A stretch of DNA of 60,072 nucleotides, from the UHGV virus genome UHGV-0303171; one strand, 5' to 3'. Below the pieces are notes generated by a model that did not search any database, was not told the origin of the DNA, and worked only from the letters and a program-made list of their open reading frames with translations. A program made the position numbers and the translations under genes. Positions 4,386 to 60,072 of this stretch are shown in pieces. Source of the stretch: a virus. Within the stretch, counting starts at the first letter, position 1, and every line of letters begins with the position of its first letter.

Positions 4386-4798
4386 AAGAGAGATTAACAA
4401 CATACCACTGTGGAAAAGCAGTGATTAAGGACAAGAATAAGCTGTCAGAAGCTATTGAGAAGTTAGCTGAGTTTGAGGAAAAAGAAAAATGTGGAGAATG
4501 GATTGACGCTATCGAACTTGCGAAAATTGCTATTGCGCTGCAAAGTCAGAAGTGGATTCCAGTGAGTGAGAGGTTGCCGAAAGACGAAAAAAACTGTCTG
4601 GTAACCCTGAAAAAAACTGAAGGAATACCGGAAACACTGATGAGCATTGCAAACTATCTAGTATTTCCAAATGGAGGTCATTGGAACGATATCAAACATG
4701 GTTTTCTTGGGTGGGATAGATACAAGAATGGGAGCGCAGGAACGATGATGTATAAGGTGGTTGCCTGGTTGCCGTTACCTGAACCATATAAGGAGTGA
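4382..4798 (+). CDS. hypothetical phage protein (DUF551-like WIPVSERLP motif)
   Basis: KWIPVSERLP and C-terminal WLPLPEPYK resemble small phage DUF551 proteins. This is recalled from memory and not verified. Confidence 0.45.
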   Translation: MKERLTTYHCGKAVIKDKNKLSEAIEKLAEFEEKEKCGEWIDAIELAKIAIALQSQKWIPVSERLPKDEKNCLVTLKKTEGIPETLMSIANYLVFPNGGHWNDIKHGFLGWDRYKNGSAGTMMYKVVAWLPLPEPYKE

Positions 4799-4803
4799 GA
4801 TTG

Positions 4804-5115
4804 ATGAGCAGACTAATTGATGCGGATTTACTGATGAGAAAATGCGAGAAATGGTTAAAACCGAAAGCGCCAGACGAAGATGAAATGGTTTCGGTGGCAG
4901 ATATTGCGGTATCCACGCTTATGGAAATAGAAGAACAGCCGACAGCGTTTGATGTGGAAAAAGTTGTAAGAGAGCTTAGAGATTTAAAGATGCGATACTA
5001 TTTCACAATAGCAAATACAGGTGATGCAGATAAGGATTGTGCTTATCTTAATACTGCAAATGCTATTGACAAGGCAATTGAAATTGTTAAGCGAGGTGGA
5101 AGAGATGGAAAATAA
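4804..5115 (+). CDS. hypothetical protein
   Basis: ATG 4804 lies 10 nt after an AAGGAG RBS. The track start at 4795 is a GTG. Confidence 0.5.
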   Translation: MSRLIDADLLMRKCEKWLKPKAPDEDEMVSVADIAVSTLMEIEEQPTAFDVEKVVRELRDLKMRYYFTIANTGDADKDCAYLNTANAIDKAIEIVKRGGRDGK

Positions 5116-6939: not shown

Positions 6940-7173
6940 AGGATCAAAATCAATGAAGTTTCGTGGAGATATAAAACACGGAAAGCTTACGAGTAGTGCA
7001 CCTAGCGTAAAAGCTGTTAGACGTTTCAGAACCAAACCATATGAAGCAGCTAACCTTGTGAAGAAACAAGGAGAATATTTAAGTGAGTTGCCACATGAAT
7101 GAATAGAACGTATGGGAGCGGATTTGAGCCGGGACGTAGTGGTTTAGCCGCTCCCTTGAAAGAGGGATCGCGT

Positions 7174-7578
7174 ATGAAGTTATGTAAATGTGTAAAAAGC
7201 GAGATAAATTATTACATAAAAGAATGTAACTTTACCGATGAAGAATTGAGAATTTTTATTATGTTATCAAAAGGAAAAAGCATAATTGAAATTTCGGAAA
7301 AACTTTCTGTTTCAGAATCAACCGTAAACAGACGAGTAAAAAGTATAATGTCCAAAGTGATGGAGGTAGTAAAATTGAAAGATAATAGTATTCCTGTATG
7401 GGAAAAGGTAATGCTCACAGTGGAAGAAGCTTCGCAGTATAGCAACATTGGTGTTAACAAGATAAGTTCCATGCTGAACGAACCAGGATGCCCGTTCCTT
7501 TTTTGCGTTGGAAAAGGTAAAAGATTAGTTAAAAGAAAAGAATTTGAGAAGTATATTGAAAAAACGATTGAAGTCTAA
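7174..7578 (+). CDS. excisionase-like DNA-binding protein (sigma-70 region-4-like HTH fused to a Xis/Tn916-type HTH)
   Basis: The N-terminus ELRIFIMLSKGKSIIEISEKLSVSESTVNRR is a LuxR/sigma-r4-type HTH. The C-terminus MLTVEEASQYSNIGVNKISSML...KRLVKRKEFEKYIE matches the excisionase-family HTH. An AGAGGGA RBS is present and the gene sits immediately upstream of int. Confidence 0.6.
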   Translation: MKLCKCVKSEINYYIKECNFTDEELRIFIMLSKGKSIIEISEKLSVSESTVNRRVKSIMSKVMEVVKLKDNSIPVWEKVMLTVEEASQYSNIGVNKISSMLNEPGCPFLFCVGKGKRLVKRKEFEKYIEKTIEV

Positions 7579-7654
7579 CATTGAAATATGAGCCTTTATA
7601 TAGTAATATGTAGCTGTATAGTGGCTCTTTTGTAAATGGAAGGAGCAAAAAATA

Positions 7655-8845
7655 ATGGGAAAGGATTTAAAAGGAAAAGAACTAGGAGTTGGTATAACTC
7701 AAAGAAAAAACGGAACCTATCAAGGAAGATATAAAGATAGGTTTGGCAATTCAAAGACAATATATTCAAAAAAGTTATCTGAATTAAGAAAAGATCTTGC
7801 TGTTAAAATTGCAGAAAATGAAACATTTGTAAGTGTAAGAGAAACCGTAAAATTGGATAATTGGTTTAATCAATGGATAAAGATATATAAAGAAAAGAGT
7901 GTACGCCCTAATACTCTTAGAGAATACACTCACATATACAATAAAAATATATCACCTTTCATAGGAAATCGCAACATAAATTCTTTGGTTAAATCAGATA
8001 TTCAAAGAATAATAACATTGGCTCATACAAATGGATATGGGTATGAAAGGCAAAATAAAATCAAAGTCATATTATCAGATCTAATGGCTAGAGCGCTTGA
8101 AGATAATTTAATTTCAAAAAACCCGGTTTTAGGATCCAAAGTTATAGACAAGAAAGAATCTAAAGCTAAATCTCTTACTCTTGAAGAACAGAACATTTTC
8201 TTTGAATATTGCAAAAATACATTTTATGATAATATGTTTAATGTTGCAGTAAATACCGGAATGAGGCCAGGAGAACTTTTTGCGTTGACAGAATCAGATA
8301 TCGATTTTAAAAATGGGTTCATCGATGTAAACAAAACGTTAGTGTACCAAAAGTATCTTACAGATACTAGAAAGACTTTTCACCTAGAAGAACCAAAAAC
8401 AAAGCAGAGTTACAGGAAAGTCCCGATAAACAGCGTTTGTAAAATATATCTCGAAAGACAGATTCAACAAAAAGCGATAGTATCAAGCAAGAGACCAAAA
8501 GAACAGAATGATTTCTTATTCACTACAAAGTACAATACTCCGATAAATTCAGTGATATATGCAGATGCTATACATGCAGTTATAAGAGAAATAAATTTGT
8601 TGCGACCTAACAATGATTTGTTCAAAAATTTTAGTGGGCATACATTTAGGCATACGTTTGCCACTCGATGCTTTGAACATGAAATCGATCCTAAAGTTGT
8701 TCAATCATATTTAGGTCATGCAAGTGTTAAAATGACTCTTGATTTATACACTCATGTTACGAAAGAAAAATCTTTTAATGATATTGAAAAACTGGTAGAT
8801 AATACGCCAAATAATATCGTGGATTTTAAACAAAAAATTTCATAA
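7655..8845 (+). CDS. int: tyrosine site-specific integrase
   Basis: The C-terminus HTFRHTFATRCFEHEIDPKVVQSYLGHASVKMTLDLYTHV is the R...HxxR...Y catalytic signature. An N-terminal arm-binding-like domain and a GGAAGGAG RBS are present. Confidence 0.95.
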   Translation: MGKDLKGKELGVGITQRKNGTYQGRYKDRFGNSKTIYSKKLSELRKDLAVKIAENETFVSVRETVKLDNWFNQWIKIYKEKSVRPNTLREYTHIYNKNISPFIGNRNINSLVKSDIQRIITLAHTNGYGYERQNKIKVILSDLMARALEDNLISKNPVLGSKVIDKKESKAKSLTLEEQNIFFEYCKNTFYDNMFNVAVNTGMRPGELFALTESDIDFKNGFIDVNKTLVYQKYLTDTRKTFHLEEPKTKQSYRKVPINSVCKIYLERQIQQKAIVSSKRPKEQNDFLFTTKYNTPINSVIYADAIHAVIREINLLRPNNDLFKNFSGHTFRHTFATRCFEHEIDPKVVQSYLGHASVKMTLDLYTHVTKEKSFNDIEKLVDNTPNNIVDFKQKIS

Positions 8846-12401: not shown

Positions 12402-12731
12402 TTGATGAATTTCTATATCAATGATGAATTATGGCATGTCCAATATGAAAATCCATCCAGTGAGCTACTGAGACGTTCAGACGGTGTTTACACGCTCGGA
12501 GTTACTGACAGAATGACCAATACAATCTATCTGTCTAATCGTCTCCCGGATACCATGTTTGACCGCGTTCTTTCCCATGAGCTGACTCACGCTGTTTGTA
12601 TGACCTACGGAATTTCTCTTCCTATAGAAACAGAGGAACGCCTTTGCAATTTCATTTCTGACCATGCGAGAGAAATTATTTCATTGACTGATTTGATTGA
12701 AAATATTTTGCTTGCTCGTGTTGCTTATTAA
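12402..12731 (+). CDS. HExxH zinc-metallopeptidase-like mini-protein (ImmA/IrrE- or SprT-like)
   Basis: VLSHELTHAV is an HExxH motif in a 109-aa protein. Confidence 0.5.
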   Translation: MMNFYINDELWHVQYENPSSELLRRSDGVYTLGVTDRMTNTIYLSNRLPDTMFDRVLSHELTHAVCMTYGISLPIETEERLCNFISDHAREIISLTDLIENILLARVAY

Positions 12732-12736
12732 TTTCA

Positions 12737-12888
12737 TTTGTGTTATAATAATATCAGCAACGAGAAATATGTGAAGAACGAATGGGATTCAGATCAACAA
12801 TGGTCAGGAATCGTCAGCCTGAGTATACTGAGAAAAAGGATAGTACAAAATACTGTCTTTACTCTCAGCGTACTCAGGCTTTTTTATT
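12737..12888 (+). promoter_or_regulatory. conserved leader RNA element copy A: extended -10 promoter, conserved about 70-nt core, intrinsic terminator (putative riboswitch or attenuator)
   Basis: TGtTATAAT lies at 12741-12749. The core ATCAGCAACGAGAAAT..GAATGGGA..AGGAATCGTCAGCCT is shared with 19705-19775. A long hairpin at 12817-12880 is followed by T6. Confidence 0.5.
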
Positions 12889-13199
12889 TCACAAAAATAG
12901 TTTTTCGGATTTAAAATCGAAAAACTAGTTGCGAATCATACTCCAGTGATCTTGGATACGAGTCTATAAAGCAAGAAACTCTTGATAGCGGTCGTGTTAT
13001 TTATCACAGAAGAATCACACAGCTTGGAAGAAAGTTTATCTTAGGTTTGTTTGATATGGCTGCATAATCCACACTATAAGAATAATATTTTGGTAACGGA
13101 AATTGCACGGTTGATCCGTGCTTTTTTCATGCAATCTATTGAGTTTTTCAAAAGAATGTAATACAATTACAGTATATCGAAAGAAAGGAAAAAAGGATT

Positions 13200-13769
13200 A
13201 TGGGAAAATCAAAAAACACAGGAACAAAAATTTGCAAACATTGTCAGTCAGAAATACCAAAGAAAGCAAAGGTTTGTCCGAATTGTAGAAAGAAACAGGG
13301 TGGCAAGCTGAAATGGATTATTATTGCAATTGTAGTGATTGGAATTATCGGAGCTGCTATGGGCGGTGGTGGATCAGACGATTCCACAGCAAAGAGTGAT
13401 TCAAACAGTAAAGGTGCCACAGATGCTAAACAGGAAGAAACAATTAAGTATACACAGGTTTCTATCGGTGACATGATGGATGCTCTTGACAAGAATGCAG
13501 CAGCAGCTTCTGATGAGTACAAAGACAAGTATCTTGAAATTACAGGAAAACTTTCAAATATAGATAGCGACTCATCATACATTAGTATTCTTCCTGAAGA
13601 TGATGACTTTGCACTTACTGGAGTTCAGTGCTACACAAATGGAGATGAAGATATCATTAACGCTGTGAAGACTCTTTCAACTGGTGATACTATTACAGTA
13701 AGAGGAAAGTGTACAGATGTAGGAGAGGTTATGGGATACAGCCTTGACCTTGAAGAAATCGTACAGTAA
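13200..13769 (+). CDS. zinc-ribbon membrane protein with extracellular C-terminal domain
   Basis: CKHCQSEIPKKAKVCPNC zinc ribbon, followed by TM helix WIIIAIVVIGIIGAAMG. An AAAGGAAAAAAGG RBS is present. Confidence 0.6.
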   Translation: MGKSKNTGTKICKHCQSEIPKKAKVCPNCRKKQGGKLKWIIIAIVVIGIIGAAMGGGGSDDSTAKSDSNSKGATDAKQEETIKYTQVSIGDMMDALDKNAAAASDEYKDKYLEITGKLSNIDSDSSYISILPEDDDFALTGVQCYTNGDEDIINAVKTLSTGDTITVRGKCTDVGEVMGYSLDLEEIVQ

Positions 13770-19130: not shown

Positions 19131-19170
19131 GAGCAAGAAATGGTCATTCATGCTCTATTTTTTTTAAATA
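19131..19170 (+). terminator. intrinsic terminator
   Basis: AGAGCA-loop-TGCTCT followed by ATTTTTTTT. Confidence 0.5.
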
Positions 19171-19687
19171 GTTGTTAGTTCAAACTAACAGGGCAAGTAG
19201 GGTTACAAAACTGTTAATAAATTGTTACGACAAATATTTAACAAATGCCAACAAAGCCAGTAAACACAAGGGCAAACAGTGATTTATTAAATGTTACGCT
19301 GTGCAAATTATTATGCTATTTGTATACAGAATGGATACAGAATGGATACAGCCCTAATAATCGACTTACTAAATAATTTATAATATTATATATTACTTTT
19401 CAATACTATATCCTTCACTACGTTCAGTCTATAGTATTAAAAAGGTCGGGTTTTGAGAAAACACCGACTGTGCACCTCCCCAAAATCGATGTAAAAAATA
19501 AATCGACCAGACAAGAAATGAACAACACCAGGAAGAGACAACCACAGCCAACAGAACAGGGCATTGTCTGTCCTGATTATCAAAACACGGACACGAAGCG
19601 CACAGCCGAGCACGCACATACACGGACGCACACGCCTTGATAAAAAATTAAAATTAATTTACTCAACACTATTGCAAACAGATTTTC

Positions 19688-19836
19688 GTTGTGTTATAAT
19701 GGCATCAGCGACAAGAAATCCGTGAAAGCCGAATGGGAGCTGGATCGAAAAGAGCTAGGAATCGTCAGCCTAGGCATATCGAGAAAATAACAGACAATGA
19801 GCTGTTCAATATCTCGGTGTGTCTAGGCTTTTTTGT
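19688..19836 (+). promoter_or_regulatory. conserved leader RNA element copy B (same architecture as 12737..12888)
   Basis: TGtTATAAT lies at 19692-19700. The conserved core spans 19705-19775. The terminator hairpin GCCTAGG...CCTAGGC at 19768-19828 is followed by T6. Confidence 0.5.
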
Positions 19837-19871
19837 CTATAGATTATTTTGAAAATGCGGAGGTGAAAACA

Positions 19872-22220: not shown

Positions 22221-22733
22221 ATGACATTTAGAGAAGCATTTGAAGCAATGAAACATGGAGCAAAGGTAAAACTTCCATCATGGGCTGGATATTGGTTCTG
22301 GTGTATTCCAGCACAGTCAATTCTGATGCATACGAAAGATGGTAATGACATTGATGTTCGTAGAACTGAGTGTGTAGATTATACATTTTCAAATATTTGT
22401 TCCGATGAATGGATTTTTGCGGATGACACGAACTGTCTGGCACTTGGTGGCATGAATACATTTTCATTTCACGAAGCTATGAAGCAGGTGAAGAACAAGA
22501 AACGTGTAAGACGATTGACGTTTGAACCAGGCATGTTCTTACAACTTGCACAAGCCACTTTCAGAGCTTGTCTTGATGGTGAAAGGGAAGACAAATTTAA
22601 TAGCGAGGAATACTCAATCATAAAAGCAGGTGAATCTAAAAATTATCCTTATTACACAAAATGTGAGCAGTATGTGCCGACACAAGCAGATATGCTTGCA
22701 GAAGATTGGGTATTTGCAGAGCAGGAGGATTAA
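22221..22733 (+). CDS. DUF2829-like phage protein
   Basis: MTFREAFEAMKHGAKVKLPSWAGYWFW matches the DUF2829 N-terminal signature (M.F.EAlealK.GkkvaR.gW.gkg). Confidence 0.55.
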   Translation: MTFREAFEAMKHGAKVKLPSWAGYWFWCIPAQSILMHTKDGNDIDVRRTECVDYTFSNICSDEWIFADDTNCLALGGMNTFSFHEAMKQVKNKKRVRRLTFEPGMFLQLAQATFRACLDGEREDKFNSEEYSIIKAGESKNYPYYTKCEQYVPTQADMLAEDWVFAEQED

Positions 22734-23294: not shown

Positions 23295-23377
23295 GCCGCA
23301 TTCCCATAAAGGCATTGGAGATGCTTGCTAGGCATTCGGTCGGAAACGACTTGGAGGTTCGAATCCTCCATGCGGCG
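23295..23377 (+). tRNA. tRNA-Ser (anticodon GCU), type II with long variable arm
   Basis: Acceptor GCCGCAT/ATGCGGC is 7 bp with discriminator G. The anticodon arm is GATGC-ttGCTag-GCATT. The variable-arm hairpin is GTCG-gaaa-CGAC. The T arm is GGAGG-TTCGAAT-CCTCC. The D arm is less clean. Confidence 0.6.
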
Positions 23378-23510
23378 TTCTGAATTTCACGGTTCTCAGA
23401 AACACCCCTCATGTACGCGCCCTATGTGCAGTAAATATGCCATTTTCCTTTAGATTAGTTTTGATTCCCATAAGTTTAAAGTGATAAAAAGATTTCAAAA
23501 ACCGTGAAAT

Positions 23511-23584
23511 GCTATCATAGCTCAAATGGATAGAGCAGTTGATTACGAATCAACAGGTTCCCGGTTCGATTCCGGGCGGTAGCT
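23511..23584 (+). tRNA. tRNA-Arg (anticodon ACG)
   Basis: The D arm is GCTC/GAGC. The anticodon arm is GTTGA-ttACGaa-TCAAC. The T arm is CCCGG-TTCGATT-CCGGG. The acceptor is 6 of 7 paired, with an A7-C66 mismatch. Confidence 0.75.
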
Positions 23585-23642
23585 TCTCCAAGCGTGGTGA
23601 ACTTGGAGAGTCATCCTTTCATAAGATTTTTTCCTTTCGGTT

Positions 23643-23703
23643 TGCCGTGTAGTTCAATTGGTAGAACGTGTGAAATGTGTCGGTTCGAATCCGACCACGG
23701 CAA
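23643..23703 (+). ncRNA. tRNA-like element lacking an anticodon arm (61 nt; perfect acceptor, D and T arms)
   Basis: The acceptor TGCCGTG/CACGGCA is perfect. The D arm is GTTC-aattggta-GAAC. The T arm is GTCGG-TTCGAAT-CCGAC. Only 11 nt (GTGTGAAATGT) lie where the 17-nt anticodon arm plus variable loop should be. Confidence 0.4.
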
Positions 23704-24433
23704 TTCAAACATGATTAACTCGGTGAAGAGTGATTTTTCAGTCATGCCGAGATGCAATGGTAACAAGATAGGCTTGTTCGAGATATTGGATAAGCTAATT
23801 CTTTCCACTAGGAGTGATTCTGGTGGTGGAGATGGAAACCATCAACAATGCCTTGCAGTGTATCATCATAGAGAAGTCAAATGCAGACTCCTTGTGGTCG
23901 GCGATCAATAGACGCTTGCAGTGCAAGAACAATCCATTTAGTTCGTGGTGTGAGAGACCACCAACAGAGATGGAAATTCTCAAGAAGCCGATTTGCCTTG
24001 AAGCTGAGAAATCAGTGTATAACACAAGAAAGTCGTTAAAGTAGCGGTATGGCAAGTTCTTGATCTTATCAAAATGGTTTGAGTGGATTATAAAAACATT
24101 ACAAACAATTCTGAAAGAACCGTGAAATTTGTAGGTATCAATCCTGTGTGTGCTTAGACAGTGGTAGGAAGCCAAGAGTCGCTCTCAGAAGCTCAGACCT
24201 ATCATCATAGTGGCAGAATATGACTTTTACCATGATTGAATAAGGGGAAACCCTAATCATGTTTGAATTAAAAATCAATCAGTGTTTTAGCTGCGGAGTT
24301 CGCTGAAGCTCGGAAACTAACGTTTTGTTAATAAAAGACGTGGTTTACCGATCATATAATAAACTCCAATATTATAAAGAACCGTAGCAGTGCAGGATTC
24401 CTTACGGCTTTCGAGGTAAATTTCTTGCAGCTA

Positions 24434-24504
24434 AGGGCGTATAGCTTAAAGGTAGAGCACAGGACTTTGACTCCTGATGTACTGGTTCGATTCCAGTTAC
24501 GCTT
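24434..24504 (+). tRNA. tRNA-Gln (anticodon UUG)
   Basis: The D arm is GCTT/GAGC. The anticodon arm is CAGGA-ctTTGac-TCCTG. The T arm is ACTGG-TTCGATT-CCAGT. The acceptor GGGCGTA/TACGCTT has two terminal G.U pairs. Confidence 0.6.
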
Positions 24505-24549
24505 GTTTGAAAAAAAATTGAAATGTGAAAAGAAGAAAGGAGGGTTCCG

Positions 24550-24998: not shown

Positions 24999-26735
24999 AT
25001 GGCGAGCGATTATTTGATTAAAACCGTAAAAGGGTATGAAAACTACATAGAGCGTAAGGGGATTGACGAACAGGTGCTTGATGCGTACAGAGAAGCCAGC
25101 AAAGTTGCCATGTTTAACAACAAAGATAACGATGGATTGAAAATTTCAGGCAGAGCGAGACAGTTGTACGAGCAATTCATAATGAACAGCACTGGAGGAA
25201 CATCGTGGGATTTGGAAAAATATGCATTTGAGAACGGTACATATTACCAAATACTTGATGATTTCTACGATCTTATTTTAGCAGAAGCAAAAAACAAGTG
25301 CGTTGATAGCTACTTCCGGTACATCGAGAAGAAAAGAGAACCAAAAGAGCGATTTTACATGCCTAGAAGAAAGCAATTCCTGAAAATCGGTCTTGTAGAT
25401 GGCTTACAAGGAATGCTTGATGACAAGTACGATATGCTTTTGATTTCCCTCATACCCGGCGCCGGGAAAACTTCAATAGAGAAATTCTTCCTTAGCGGAG
25501 TCATTGGATGGTACCCAAAAGACTTCAATTTGTTCTATTCTCACAGCAGCGACATCACGAGAATGTTCTATGATGGAGAATTAGATATTGTGAAGAATCT
25601 CGGGGAGTATTGCTGGCATGATATATTCCCGAATTTAGCTGTTTCTGGAGAAAATGCAAAGATGGAACAGTTCAATGTTGGAAAATACAAACCGTTCCCA
25701 TCTGTTCAGTGTACATCTGTTGGTAGTAAGAACGCCGGAAAAGTACGCGCTTCTAAATTCCTACTCGTTGACGATATGATCGGAGGAATTGAAGAAGCGT
25801 TAAACAGAAATATCCTTGATAAATTGTGGGACAAATACGCCGTAGATGCCCGTCAGAGAAAGATTCAGGACACAGACGGGAATAACTGCAAGGAAATTCA
25901 TATAGCGACTAGATGGAGCGTGCACGATGTAATAGGACGTATTCAAAAGATGTATGAGGGGAATGACCGTGTAAAAACAATTGCAGTGCCAGACATTGAT
26001 CCGAAAACAGGAAAAAGCAACTTTGATTATGAGTATAGCGGATTTACTGTGGAATTCTTTGAGGACCAGCAGCTACTTATGGACGATGTTTCATACAGAT
26101 GCCTTTACAAACAGGAGCCAATTGAAAGAGAAGGACTTCTGTTCCCAGAAGAAAAGACAAGACGGTATCTGAATTTGCCACATGGAGCACCGGAAATCAT
26201 AACTGCTCAATGTGATACAAAAGGAAAAGGAACGGACTATTTTGTGCTCCCAGTCTTGCAGAAGTACGGAGAAGACTATTATTGTGTTGATTGTGTCTGC
26301 GATAATACGGCAGATTACGAATTACAGTATGAAAATGCATCAAACATCATTGTTGACAATCAGGTTCAAGAGTGTGAATTTGAGCGAAATGCCGGAGGAG
26401 ACAGAGTAGCGCTGGAAGTGAATAAGCGAGTAGAGCAAAAAAAATGGATATGCAATATTACGGATACTCCGACAGAGACTAACAAAGAAGCAAGAATCTA
26501 TCAGTGCTCAAGCTGGATTTTACAGCACGTAATATTTAAGGATTCTTCACTTTATACGCCAAAAGAGCCGTATGGAGTAATGATGAGTCTTTTGACAAGA
26601 TATTCGGTTTCCGATAAGAAGCAGCTTGACGACGTACCGGACGTTTTTTCAAACTTTGCTATAAGAATGACGGCAGGGACAAGAGAAGCAAAAGTTGAAG
26701 CAGTACACAATCCGTTTAGAGGGAGATACATATAA
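24999..26735 (+). CDS. terL: terminase large subunit
   Basis: Walker A is LIPGAGKTS, Walker B is FLLVDDM and the coupling motif is IATRWSVHD. The C-terminal nuclease acidic residues are CDTKGKGTDYFV, EFERNAGGD and LDDVPD. The protein is 578 aa. Confidence 0.85.
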   Translation: MASDYLIKTVKGYENYIERKGIDEQVLDAYREASKVAMFNNKDNDGLKISGRARQLYEQFIMNSTGGTSWDLEKYAFENGTYYQILDDFYDLILAEAKNKCVDSYFRYIEKKREPKERFYMPRRKQFLKIGLVDGLQGMLDDKYDMLLISLIPGAGKTSIEKFFLSGVIGWYPKDFNLFYSHSSDITRMFYDGELDIVKNLGEYCWHDIFPNLAVSGENAKMEQFNVGKYKPFPSVQCTSVGSKNAGKVRASKFLLVDDMIGGIEEALNRNILDKLWDKYAVDARQRKIQDTDGNNCKEIHIATRWSVHDVIGRIQKMYEGNDRVKTIAVPDIDPKTGKSNFDYEYSGFTVEFFEDQQLLMDDVSYRCLYKQEPIEREGLLFPEEKTRRYLNLPHGAPEIITAQCDTKGKGTDYFVLPVLQKYGEDYYCVDCVCDNTADYELQYENASNIIVDNQVQECEFERNAGGDRVALEVNKRVEQKKWICNITDTPTETNKEARIYQCSSWILQHVIFKDSSLYTPKEPYGVMMSLLTRYSVSDKKQLDDVPDVFSNFAIRMTAGTREAKVEAVHNPFRGRYI

Positions 26736-46639: not shown

Positions 46640-47845
46640 ATGAAACGATATTGCAAGAACATTGATATAACAAGCAGAGAATTAATCTCAGAAGCAACAT
46701 GGAGCTGTATAAGTAATAAAATTACACATAGCGACACAATTCACATGTTCATGGAATACACAGGACTTCCGTATCAGTTCTTGATGGATGTAGCTCAAGA
46801 GAGCAGATATATGCTTGACAGCATTGTAGAAACTGTCATAGATGGAATCCGACAAGAAATACTGGAACAGAAGTATATCGTGAAGAAAATCCGTTACAGA
46901 ATCAAGAAAGATTCTTGTACCGGAAAACTACGAAATATCGGAATCCAAGATATTAAACAGCAAATTTACGATTATATCGCAGTATACGGCTTGAAAGAAT
47001 TGTTTGAGAAGAAACTTGAGTTTTATCAATGCGGAGCAGTTAAGCGTAAAGGTAATGAATTTGGAGCTGGAGCTATCAAGAAATGGCTGGCAGATAAAAA
47101 TATCCGTTGGGCATGGCAATCTGATGTTCGACATTATTATGAAAACATAAACAAAAATGTTCTGAAAAAGATGTTGAAACGTGATGTGAAGAATGACAAG
47201 CTTCTTCATTTAGTGTTCTTCTTGATTGATACGTTCGAGTATGGACTTTCTATAGGTTCATATTTGAGCCAGTTCTTAGCAAATTACTATCTGAGCAAGG
47301 CTTATATCTATGCAAGTCAACAGTTTAAGGTTCGCAAGAGGAAAGATGAAACAGCCAAGAAAGTAAGGCTTGTGAGTCATGTATTATTCCAGATGGATGA
47401 TATCATTTTCTTCGGTCGCAGCAAGAAAGACATGCAAATGCTAGTAAAGAGATTTAACGGATATATCGATAAAGAGCTAGGACTTGAATTGAAAGAAACA
47501 GCTCATTTCATTGATTTGCAGACAGGATATGTAGATATTCTTGGACGGAAGATATCAAGAAAGAATCTGACGATACGTTCATCAACATTCTTGAAAGCAA
47601 GGAGAACTTATAAGAGGGCATATTCGTATGTCTGCCACGGGAAAGAGATTCCGCTGAAACTTGCAAGAAGTTGTGTCGCAAGATACGGAGCAATCAAACA
47701 CACGGATAGCAAGAGATTTCAAAGACGATACCACATTGAAACTATAAATAAGGCAACTAAGAAAGTAATCGGACGAGCCGCGAAAGGAGAACAACGTGAA
47801 TACAATGAGATTTTCGGAGAAACAGGAGAAAGTAAACATCTATGA
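46640..47845 (+). CDS. DGR-type reverse transcriptase
   Basis: RT motifs 1-7 are recognisable. Motif 4 is GLSIGSYLSQFLANYYL, which carries the DGR hallmark IGxxxSQ. The catalytic box is FQMDDIIFFG. There are no maturase or endonuclease domains. Confidence 0.9.
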   Translation: MKRYCKNIDITSRELISEATWSCISNKITHSDTIHMFMEYTGLPYQFLMDVAQESRYMLDSIVETVIDGIRQEILEQKYIVKKIRYRIKKDSCTGKLRNIGIQDIKQQIYDYIAVYGLKELFEKKLEFYQCGAVKRKGNEFGAGAIKKWLADKNIRWAWQSDVRHYYENINKNVLKKMLKRDVKNDKLLHLVFFLIDTFEYGLSIGSYLSQFLANYYLSKAYIYASQQFKVRKRKDETAKKVRLVSHVLFQMDDIIFFGRSKKDMQMLVKRFNGYIDKELGLELKETAHFIDLQTGYVDILGRKISRKNLTIRSSTFLKARRTYKRAYSYVCHGKEIPLKLARSCVARYGAIKHTDSKRFQRRYHIETINKATKKVIGRAAKGEQREYNEIFGETGESKHL

Positions 47846-49907: not shown

Positions 49908-49944
49908 AAACAAAAATCCCGGGTGAAATTCCCGGGTTCTTTTT
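49908..49944. terminator. bidirectional intrinsic terminator
   Basis: The palindromic stem CCCGGG-tgaaatt-CCCGGG is flanked by an A-run on the 5' side and a T-run on the 3' side. It lies between the convergent endolysin and XRE genes. Confidence 0.65.
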
Positions 49945-50560
49945 ATTTCTTTTTATCGTTATTCTTTCTTGTTTGACCAGTCATTGTGTAACCGTTTTTG
50001 TTTTCACATGCAGCTTCACGACCTCTTTGCAAAGCGATATTTAAAGAAGCAAGGTCAGGCATTATATTATCTTCATTGACAAGTTCTCCTCTTGCTTTTT
50101 CCATAAGGAAGTTGTCGTAAACAGCTTGACAGATATTAACTCTCGACCGCATAGAGCAGTGATTGTTGGCTGTCAGCATATTTAATTGCTCGTGCCATGA
50201 GGAACCAGTGTCCCCGAACATACAGTAAGCCATTTGGCGAATATCACGCTCGGTGTAGCTTGTGTTTATGTAAGCATGAATACAGTCAACCATCTTTTCA
50301 ATTTCTGTATTGTCAACAGTCAAGAATTTATCAGGGTATCGGTAGCTGAGAATGTACTTTTCCATGTTTAATCCTAGCACCGAGAACCACTTTTCTAATG
50401 TTCTGTAACCAGGCTCACCTATTCCGGATTCCCAGTTCTGAATTGTAGTGACTGACTTTCCGAGAGCTTGAGCCATTTGTTTTCTTGTTTTTCCGGCATC
50501 TGTTCTTGATTTAGCAAGCATGTTACCGAAATTCTGTGCTCTTTCAATCTCAGATGACAT
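49943..50560 (-). CDS. XRE-family HTH transcriptional regulator with C-terminal domain (repressor-like)
   Basis: RKQMAQALGKSVTTIQNWESG is the HTH. The start is placed at the minus-strand ATG whose upstream GGGAGGT RBS lies at plus-strand 50569-50575. The track ORF extends further. Confidence 0.6.
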   Translation of the reverse strand: MSSEIERAQNFGNMLAKSRTDAGKTRKQMAQALGKSVTTIQNWESGIGEPGYRTLEKWFSVLGLNMEKYILSYRYPDKFLTVDNTEIEKMVDCIHAYINTSYTERDIRQMAYCMFGDTGSSWHEQLNMLTANNHCSMRSRVNICQAVYDNFLMEKARGELVNEDNIMPDLASLNIALQRGREAACENKNGYTMTGQTRKNNDKKK

Positions 50561-50761
50561 AAAAAATTTTACCTCCCTTTTGCCATTTCGCAACCAAAAA
50601 ATTGTGTTTCAAATTTTAAAAAATAAAGACATAATATTTTACGTCTATTTTTCACGGATGCAAACAAAAAAATTAATGCATAATTATAAAAAATTTAATA
50701 AGTAATTTTTCCTCCGTTTCCGCTATAATAAAAACAAATTTTAAAAAAGGAGGACAAACAC

Positions 50762-51171: not shown

Positions 51172-51558
51172 TCAATTTTTTGAAATAAACGTTTTATAGA
51201 AGTTACAAAAAAGTTTTTTCTTGTCATCATCCATATAATAGTAGTCCATTACCATATTCACAAAATCTTTATCAGTCTGAACAATTTTCTGAACAATTTT
51301 CAGGAATTCGTCTAACGATTCATCTTCTATATATGGATGATCGTCTGTTAGCTGAGTTTTCAAAACTCTAAAATAATCAGCAATCTCTTGAATTTTACCA
51401 GCTTTAGGAAGAATCTTCCCTTTACACCATGTATTAAATGTTGTATAAGAAAATCCCAACTCTTCGGCTACTTCTTTTTGTTGTTTTCCGCTCTTGGCAA
51501 TGTAGTAATTCAAGTTCTTAGCAAATATCTTCTTTTGCTCTTCATCGGTATATGACAT
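51172..51558 (-). CDS. CI-like XRE-family repressor
   Basis: QKEVAEELGFSYTTFNTWCKG is the HTH. The RBS is GGAGGTGTGAG. The gene is divergent from the Cro-like gene. Confidence 0.65.
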   Translation of the reverse strand: MSYTDEEQKKIFAKNLNYYIAKSGKQQKEVAEELGFSYTTFNTWCKGKILPKAGKIQEIADYFRVLKTQLTDDHPYIEDESLDEFLKIVQKIVQTDKDFVNMVMDYYYMDDDKKKLFCNFYKTFISKN

Positions 51559-51597
51559 TCTCACACCTCCTCTCTTGCATTGAATATAGTAACACAC

Positions 51598-59565: not shown

Positions 59566-60072
59566 ATGAAACAGAGAATAAAGAAAATAAAATGTGAAAT
59601 CTTTCGAGATTCCATGCAGAACTATAAGAAATATGCAATCCCACCAGCACAGCTAATTATAGCGGATGTGCCATACAATGTCGGAAGTAATTTCTACGGA
59701 AGCAATCCAATGTGGTACGTAGGTGGGGATAATAAAAATGGTGAAAGCAAACTTGCAAAGAAAGCAGCATTCAATTCCGATTTCAATTTCAATTTGTATG
59801 AGTATTTCCATTTTTGCTCAAAAATGTTGAAGAAAGAACCTAAGAAAGCTGGTAAGCGTGGACGAAGTTCTGACGCACCATGCATGATTGTGTTTTGCAG
59901 TTTCGAACAGTTAAGCACACTGATCAACGCAGCTAAGAAACATGGCTTTGTGAATTACATACCGCTTGTATTTGTGAAAAATTACAGCCCACAGGTATTG
60001 AAAGCAAATATGCGTGTTGTAGGCGCTACGGAATACGCTTTGGTATTATACCGAGACAAACTTCCAAAATTT
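59566..60072 (+). CDS. DNA methyltransferase, N-terminal part (ORF runs off the window end and resumes in frame at nt 1)
   Basis: IIADVPYNVG is a DPPY-like motif IV. There is no stop before nt 60072 and exactly 169 codons. Continuation at 1..357 gives the HPAQKP and DPCCGSGST motifs in the correct order for PF01555. Confidence 0.75.
   Translation, partial: MKQRIKKIKCEIFRDSMQNYKKYAIPPAQLIIADVPYNVGSNFYGSNPMWYVGGDNKNGESKLAKKAAFNSDFNFNLYEYFHFCSKMLKKEPKKAGKRGRSSDAPCMIVFCSFEQLSTLINAAKKHGFVNYIPLVFVKNYSPQVLKANMRVVGATEYALVLYRDKLPKF

Follow-up and report, generated by a model that had tools for sequence, protein, structure and literature searches.

In temperate phages of gut Firmicutes, what is known about the timing of late genes comes mainly from activator proteins of the RinA, ArpU and Alt families, and we know of hardly any description in these phages of terminator-based control, be it of the lambda PR'-tR' or the nut type. 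Lambda PR' combines a strong constitutive promoter, the 6S leader RNA as its short terminated product, the tR' terminator and the antiterminator Q. Cis RNA antiterminators have been described in Gram-positive mobile elements, namely conAn2 of pLS20 family plasmids, which spans 260-600 base pairs (bp) and is paired with the ConAn1 protein (PMC8191782), and canT of Tn916, of ~450 nucleotides (nt) (PMC11658703); these RNAs are poorly conserved among relatives (conAn2, PMC8191782; canT, PMC11658703). Here, we analyzed two related promoter-leader-terminator elements, copies A and B, in the temperate gut phage genome UHGV-0303171 (60,072 nt; hereafter the window, meaning the whole stretch of DNA analyzed). 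With about even confidence, we propose from the sequence that each copy would be a factor-dependent cis leader that sets read-through of a very strong intrinsic terminator.

The two copies share the same anatomy on the plus strand, i.e., a promoter with an extended -10, a conserved core of 63 alignment columns, and an intrinsic terminator (Table 1). Inspection of the sequence and alignment confirmed what the preliminary description had placed at both sites, that is, an identical extended -10 (TGTTATAAT), a conserved core, a hairpin and a T-run, and its three invariant blocks (ATCAGC.AC.AGAAAT, CGAATGGGA, and AGGAATCGTCAGCCT) are present in both copies. The last of these, a 15-mer, occurs exactly twice in the window, once per copy. 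At the RNA level, the invariant core blocks read AUCAGC, AGAAAU, GUGAA, CGAAUGGGA, GAUC, and AGGAAUCGUCAGCCU. A consensus scan picked up the copy B promoter with 10/12 matches plus TG, while the -35 of copy A overlaps the final codons of the preceding ImmA-like open reading frame (ORF; stop codon at 12729-12731) and transcription from this copy is predicted to start at ~12756-12757. Identity between the copies amounts to 60/80 from the -10 through the end of the core, as compared to 35/64 in the terminator and to a background level of 23/42 over the stretch of 42 nt that precedes the -10. Their local alignment score of 74 was reached by none of 300 shuffles, which scored 17.4 ± 2.4. The terminator hairpins, with predicted energies of -38.2 (A) and -33.8 (B) kcal/mol, differ in sequence, as previously described, and are paired throughout in both copies, with G-U pairs in copy B. 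Explicit pair counts identified five terminator pairs altered on both sides between A and B. The predicted default product of each copy is a terminated RNA of ~125-130 nt.

We built a covariance model from A-type plus B-type sequences (R1), which scored copies A and B with 152 and 146 bits, respectively, and found no third copy in the window. Searches spanning 2.9 million viral contigs, the metagenome set and 185,579 genomes recovered the element on ~50 viral and human-gut contigs, always as A-type or B-type and within one phage lineage. Three different block patterns retrieved from IMG/VR the same ~28 loci on ~20 contigs, A-type and B-type only, and the metagenome scan yielded 31 loci, the labelled contigs being human-gut assemblies; 29 of these 31 matched R1, all at 142-157 bits, and L120 and L127 remained unmatched. 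Contigs that span the region hold both types, 7-9 kilobases apart. Representative GTDB genomes gave only chance matches, which fell in Actinomycetota coding sequence plus one Clostridia coding sequence and were in no case confirmed by the model; GenBank phages contained no DNA match to the element, and R1 matched neither the leaders of distant relatives nor Dulem virus 39. A scan of the window at Rfam gathering thresholds returned ROOL and transfer RNAs (tRNAs) only, with nothing at either copy, whereas permissive Rfam scans of copies A and B, which accepted E values up to 10, added just spurious microRNA, small nucleolar RNA and plastid matches on the long hairpin. Rfam likewise assigned no family to the leaders of nine related loci. 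The core, which the preliminary description had been unable to match to any known riboswitch class, constitutes a new, narrowly distributed RNA family, and the kind of control to which it belongs is a known one.

Conservation of this family is selective. Within each type, 13-14% of core sites are variable, compared to 29-50% in the promoter spacer, and the leader and core of copy B are 100% identical in locus L137 though the protein encoded by the downstream gene (gene X, see below) is only 70% identical there. Mosaic phage genomes do hold duplicated cassettes, and a neutral promoter-terminator duplication, or else a short leader peptide gene starting at the ATG inside CGAATGGGA, could in principle account for the pair. 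This ATG starts a frame, reading RNRQP, that is open in both copies for 44 and 39 codons and extends through the terminator. However, two natural variants have lost the start codon, which reads ATA in L026-type and ACG in L008:213-type sequences (at least two loci each), a Shine-Dalgarno sequence is absent, and the peptide tails of the two copies are unrelated; we therefore rejected a leader peptide and regard the core as not coding. By inspection, moreover, the variable stretch contains six codons that differ, of which only one is synonymous. Conservation in blocks, the compensatory changes and a polymorphism below that of the spacer argue equally against neutrality, making either version of this explanation very improbable.

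RNAalifold and explicit pair counts revealed a core hairpin, H4, in which three pairs change in a compensatory manner between A and B around a conserved loop. An H4-like helix arises in 0.05% of core column shuffles (p ~0.0005). Natural variants show single-base changes in the GAAUGG loop. The remaining core helices that flank H4 are mostly invariant or altered on one side only; they include UGA/UCR, UNN/NNR, which has one compensatory pair but is just 78% paired, and GCGA/UCGU, which links the RNA 5' end with the invariant block on the 3' side. When we searched systematically for helices common to both types, we found, in addition, a 5-bp hairpin (YYAGG/CCURR) that pairs columns 52-56 with 66-70, is 98.7% paired, and has two pairs that differ in a compensatory way between the types (p ~0.03 by shuffling). 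Its 3' strand is the base, i.e., the first 5 nt, of the terminator 5' arm, and its 5' strand copies the terminator 3' arm and covaries with the terminator, which makes this hairpin a candidate antiterminator. The invariant 9-nt loop, AAUCGUCAG, holds a UCGU able to pair with the 5'-terminal GCGA, so that both helices together form a candidate, geometrically possible H-type pseudoknot. Homologs outside this genome, compensatory pairs in the core (three in H4 and two in the 5-bp hairpin), and a possible pairing of the core with the terminator 5' arm, all of which the preliminary description had put forward as means of checking its proposal, were found. The analysis supports the A/B pair as a promoter-leader-terminator unit that was duplicated, is conserved selectively and probably acts at the RNA level.

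This covariation bears directly on a DNA-level alternative of the lambda Q type, according to which the initially transcribed region would be a binding and pause site that loads a phage antiterminator protein, RNA structure being irrelevant. Conservation that begins at the -10 and spans the first ~65 bp, an element common to two promoters, and the succession of constitutive promoter, short leader, terminator and late operon all fit such a PR'-tR' logic. Indeed, copy B resembles PR'-tR' in its strong constitutive-type promoter, followed after ~130-200 nt by an efficient terminator directly before the late operon, in the short RNA that would be terminated by default, and in leader sequences that vary among related phages. 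Nonetheless, the three plus two compensatory changes indicate selection on RNA pairing, a trait that, like the presence of two copies per genome and a host that is an uncultured human-gut bacterium rather than a proteobacterium, sets this system apart from lambda. Neither a recognizable Q-binding element nor a sigma-dependent pause hexamer is present; by inspection, the nearest -10-like sequence, AGAAAT, shares 3/6 positions with TATAAT, the A at position 2 not being among them. PHROGs and Pfam also disclosed no Q-family protein in the genes scanned. We consider a Q-type DNA site quite improbable.

The same structural features could alternatively denote a metabolite or signal riboswitch of a new class, in which a pseudoknot of GCGA/UCGU and YYAGG/CCURR, interrupted by the GAAUGG hairpin, would serve as aptamer and, with ligand bound, would occupy the terminator 5' arm at its base and switch transcription on. 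The conserved core does overlap the terminator, the 5-bp hairpin covaries within a feasible H-type pseudoknot, the invariant 15-nt block spans both alternative pairings, and ZTP and fluoride riboswitches use a comparable overlapping pseudoknot/terminator design. As in these riboswitches and in the ribonucleic antiterminator (RAT)/terminator attenuators of the BglG/LicT/SacY type, a weak candidate antiterminator lies here over the start of the terminator 5' arm and would win only if stabilized by a factor. The leaders contain neither a RAT consensus nor ANTAR-type hexaloops, the phage has no CAT/PRD protein, and no riboswitch model matches the element. Its confinement to one phage lineage in all the collections searched, the use of unrelated leaders in the same position by close relatives, which is unusual for a metabolite riboswitch, the lack of a common metabolic theme among the regulated genes, and the tolerance of the GAAUGG loop to single-base changes further render a riboswitch improbable. 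A classical attenuator with a long antiterminator was rejected because folds of the nascent transcript gave no conserved strong alternative. Of the options raised in the preliminary description (riboswitch, attenuator, or antitermination target), a leader that would control the terminator at the RNA level is the best reading, whereas a riboswitch is disfavored by the missing Rfam class, the single lineage, and the weak fold of the core.

The genomic position of copy B is informative in this regard. Its T-run ends at 19834, only 24 nt ahead of the gene X (ORF 19872) ribosome-binding site (RBS), and by inspection this gap offers neither space nor a good consensus for a promoter, so that gene X would depend on read-through from copy B. 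Gene X is the first gene to require such read-through and heads an operon that continues through small ORFs, a Tad2-like gene, three tRNAs and the ROOL RNA to the terminase at 24999. Its product has no Pfam, PHROG or PDB sequence match, and its AlphaFold model is of moderate quality (predicted local distance difference test score, pLDDT, of 67). Homologs of gene X at 43-57% identity start 20-40 nt behind a terminator, as does, likewise behind a terminator, the far more distant homolog of Dulem virus 39 (23% identity, pairwise E 2e-10). This terminator is preceded by an unrelated leader of 100-300 nt and, nearly always, by a strong promoter (examples in Table 1); the AT-rich region upstream of the gene in L138 shows no clear promoter or terminator. 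R1 found these leaders unrelated to copies A and B, and none matched Rfam. Hence, the architecture is conserved and the leader RNA replaceable, because distant homologs keep the layout with unrelated leaders; lambdoid late leaders and RNA antiterminators of the conAn2 type behave likewise (PMC8191782). Both position and this shared layout support copy B as the putative cis leader of the gene X operon.

One of the replacement leaders, the L055 type (L055 2832-2962 and 15 further loci: L056, L059, L062, and L065-L080), precedes a gene X homolog, is followed by a terminator, and folds into a hairpin that covaries and whose GCGCCC loop forms pairs with GGGCGC further downstream (in L059, CGCGUCC with GGGCGCG). 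We considered whether other phage groups have a paired-leader arrangement and rejected it, as the L055-type leader occurs once per locus and the two leaders of L140, a locus of another phage group, are mutually unrelated. At L140, the slot of copy A is taken by a different promoter, short leader and terminator, and this leader is unrelated to that of the L140 gene X, which indicates that the A/B duplication is specific to the lineage studied here.

Layout also weighs on the possibility that the copies are paralogous trans-acting small RNAs of ~130 nt, with a 5' seed and a stabilizing terminator hairpin, that act on host or phage messenger RNAs or bind and titrate a protein, gene X read-through being mere leakage. 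A strong promoter of its own and a very strong terminator predict a discrete short RNA as the default of each copy, just as lambda PR' gives the abundant short terminated 6S RNA; the conserved 5' part is weakly structured, as in seed regions, and no adjacent gene lies downstream of copy A. On the other hand, the invariant blocks have no complementary target beyond chance in the phage genome, the only one searched, and the compensatory hairpin favors structure over a linear seed. The gene X operon, in addition, has no other evident promoter, and relatives with unrelated leaders keep the terminator-then-RBS layout. We thus deem small RNAs unlikely, if still the most serious of the rival accounts.

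Copy A is a paralog placed at the end of the early operon. The preliminary description had both copies as leaders upstream of ORFs, but copy A does not directly precede the zinc-ribbon ORF 13200: ~310 nt of non-coding DNA intervene, in which another terminator (13105-13121) with its T-run and, at 13139-13167, a site resembling a promoter are located, and copy A is hence not the direct leader of this ORF. Many relatives have, behind copy A, a conserved leader of tandem hairpins and then a Bro/Ant antirepressor gene. This "ant leader", located at 7650-7762 (minus strand) in L009 and at 1606-1722 in L140, comprises two similar hairpins, UCCAGU-GAWGGU-GCUGGA followed by GACCAGU-GAWGCG-RCUGGUU, ahead of a hairpin that resembles a terminator; its counterpart in the window (12938-12965) retains one hairpin only and has no Rfam family reported. 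The location of copy A upstream of ant in many relatives, and a short RNA from the 5' end of the unit, recall the P1/P7 c4, P4 CI and N15 CA immunity RNAs. Unlike these, the copies show no match to the Rfam c4 family and no complementary target sites downstream, and copy B would control the late/packaging operon instead of ant.

For a leader that controls terminator read-through, the following course can be envisaged. The near-consensus housekeeping promoter would fire constitutively, with no activator required, and by default the transcript would stop at the terminator hairpin and U6 as an RNA of ~125-130 nt. A factor, most likely a phage early protein or a host protein, or RNA polymerase itself, could then engage the conserved core through the 5' single-stranded AUCAGCGAC.AGAAAU, the small hairpin with its GAAUGG loop and the invariant AGGAAUCGUCAGCCU, and would thereby either block the terminator base or make polymerase resistant to termination. 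In a candidate local route, the YYAGG/CCURR hairpin would sequester the first 5 nt of the terminator 5' arm, possibly aided by the pseudoknot with the RNA 5' end (GCGA/UCGU). The sequence accommodates both this local antiterminator/pseudoknot and a processive, nut- or put-like modification of polymerase. Read-through at copy B would open gene X, Tad2, the tRNAs, ROOL, terminase and the structural genes, an anti-defense gene thus being switched on as well, and read-through at copy A would open the accessory region with its superinfection-exclusion and antirepressor genes. If both copies are opened by engagement of the core, the two transcription units would be switched in concert by a single signal.

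Several observations weigh against this proposal. The candidate antiterminator has 5 bp only (-4 kcal/mol), as opposed to the at least 17 bp of the terminator (-34 to -38 kcal/mol), and the core, in its consensus structure, has marginal predicted stability (0 to -5 kcal/mol) and folds weakly by itself; the minimum-energy fold of copy A is another, non-conserved hairpin. All covariation stems from a single split between A and B, two paralogous lineages, as the searches found no more divergent members. In the window, no gene lies directly behind copy A, and the accessory genes downstream have promoters and terminators of their own. Finally, PHROGs and Pfam scans of 50 ORFs revealed no Q-like or N-like protein, though a non-homologous analog may be encoded among the many unannotated ORFs, and no convincing N-like arginine-rich small ORF was found in a plausible gene.

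Among described systems, lambda nutL/nutR and HK022 putL/putR are similar in having two paralogous RNA sites of ~70-75% identity behind two promoters, a conserved unpaired sequence, a small hairpin with a covarying stem, and terminators just downstream. The sites analyzed here differ in beginning at the transcript 5' end and abutting the terminator, and show no boxA consensus by inspection, no associated N-like arginine-rich protein and no Rfam match. With conAn2 and canT they would share an RNA-level, orientation-specific and cis-acting nature upstream of terminators in Firmicutes mobile elements as well as poor conservation among relatives, and the window also has a Tn916-type Xis and Int pair; those RNAs are, however, several times longer, have no terminator of their own directly behind, and display no evident sequence similarity to the copies. 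More tentatively, the element could be a phage RNA switch of a new kind that operates on transcription of the Firmicutes type, be it as a put-like RNA that suffices by itself to make host RNA polymerase resistant to terminators or as a pseudoknot that senses a signal from phage or host, whose two copies would co-activate the antirepressor/accessory region and the anti-defense/packaging operon, and which would be one of several non-homologous leader classes in the same slot of a large gut-phage group. Together with the unrelated leaders that fill its position in relatives, this element suggests that placing a strong promoter, structured leader and terminator before the packaging operon is a general design in this phage group. 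Being compact (~130 nt) and having clear mutational targets, namely the three covarying H4 pairs and the 5-bp mimic of the terminator arm, the leader makes the question directly testable, and it could yield a portable read-through switch for Gram-positive hosts.

Table 1. Coordinates of the two copies, of neighboring features in the window, and of three gene X loci in relatives (the latter in coordinates of their own locus).
Feature	Coordinates	Strand	Remarks
Two helix-turn-helix (HTH) repressor-like genes	49943-50593 and 51172-51597	-	facing long early operon
Long early operon	51708 through junction to 12731	+	includes Xis, integrase
Tn916-type Xis	7099	+	N-terminal GerE / sigma region-4-like HTH
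Tyrosine integrase	7655	+	co-oriented with Xis
ImmA-like small HExxH ORF	12405-12731	+	last gene of early operon
Copy A promoter	12721-12749	+	-35 TTGCTT 12721-12726, 17-bp spacer, extended -10 TGT-TATAAT 12741-12749
Copy A conserved core	12753-12815	+	alignment columns 1-63
Copy A hairpin H4	12776-12790	+	GAAC-GAAUGG-G(A)UUC
Copy A candidate antiterminator/pseudoknot hairpin	12804-12822	+	UCAGG-AAUCGUCAG-CCUGA
Copy A intrinsic terminator	12816-12885	+	65-nt hairpin 12816-12880, then T6 12880-12885
Sie-like gene	13200		accessory region after copy A
Antirepressor-like gene	14531		accessory region after copy A
Terminator-like hairpin + T-run	~19133-19165		by inspection
Copy B promoter	19672-19700	+	-35 TTGCAA 19672-19677, 17-bp spacer, TGT-TATAAT 19692-19700
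Copy B conserved core	19704-19766	+	alignment columns 1-63
Copy B hairpin H4	19727-19741	+	AGCC-GAAUGG-G(A)GCU
Copy B candidate antiterminator/pseudoknot hairpin	19755-19773	+	CUAGG-AAUCGUCAG-CCUAG
Copy B intrinsic terminator	19767-19834	+	63-nt hairpin 19767-19829, then T6 19829-19834
Gene X	RBS 19859-19865, ATG 19872, to 20561	+	RBS GGAGGTG; 229 amino acids
Tad2-like (Thoeris anti-defense 2) protein	22221-22733		Pfam PF11195, E 1.3e-18
Phage tRNA cluster	23295-24505		Ser-gct 23295, Arg-acg 23511, Gln-ttg 24435
ROOL RNA, full-length	23695-24274		379 bits; inside tRNA cluster
L055 gene X homolog	terminator 2931-2956, homolog 3001		promoter 11/12 with TG; consensus scan
L081 (Dulem virus 39) gene X homolog	terminator 13588-13623, homolog 13656		promoter 12/12 with TG; consensus scan
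L139 gene X homolog	terminator 4795-4836, homolog 4865		promoter not flagged; consensus scan

Joining position 60072 to position 1 restores the frame of a 310-amino-acid DNA methyltransferase, which indicates that the window represents an entire phage genome in circularly permuted form. In circular order, copy A follows the early operon and copy B precedes the late genes. The overall layout is alike in Dulem virus 39, the nearest deposited phage, whose terminase is 79% identical. The Xis/integrase pair (7099-8845) lies in the middle of the early operon, not beside the repressors, and the integrase of Dulem virus 39 occupies the same relative position. The ImmA-like ORF was considered for its position as a Q analog and rejected, because it resembles a small peptidase of the HExxH type.

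Between the accessory region and copy B lie minus-strand genes, a small HTH gene of the Cro/C1 type (18642) and a 45-codon ORF, and copy B is itself preceded by a non-coding stretch of ~500 nt (19165-19660). This stretch includes a tandem repeat of CAGAATGGATA (~19328-19350) as well as, at 19490-19640, a strand-asymmetric segment poor in T; the corresponding place in relatives holds repeats that are purine-rich or iteron-like, and four IMG/VR contigs have an end 250-500 nt upstream of copy B. The stretch possibly represents a packaging site, a genome end or an origin. Further downstream, Rfam detected a tRNA-like element of 61 nt (23643-23703) that lacks most of the anticodon arm, overlaps the ROOL 5' end and was not called by ARAGORN. 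Six relatives (L050, L053, L055, L056, L058, and L059) carry matches to hammerhead type II, pistol and twister-P1 ribozymes on the minus strand, ~2 kilobases upstream of gene X, and RAGATH-27 and int-alpA RNAs downstream. Just past the tail genes, the window encodes a reverse transcriptase (46640-47845; PHROG 1423, E 6e-53) that is probably part of a diversity-generating retroelement.

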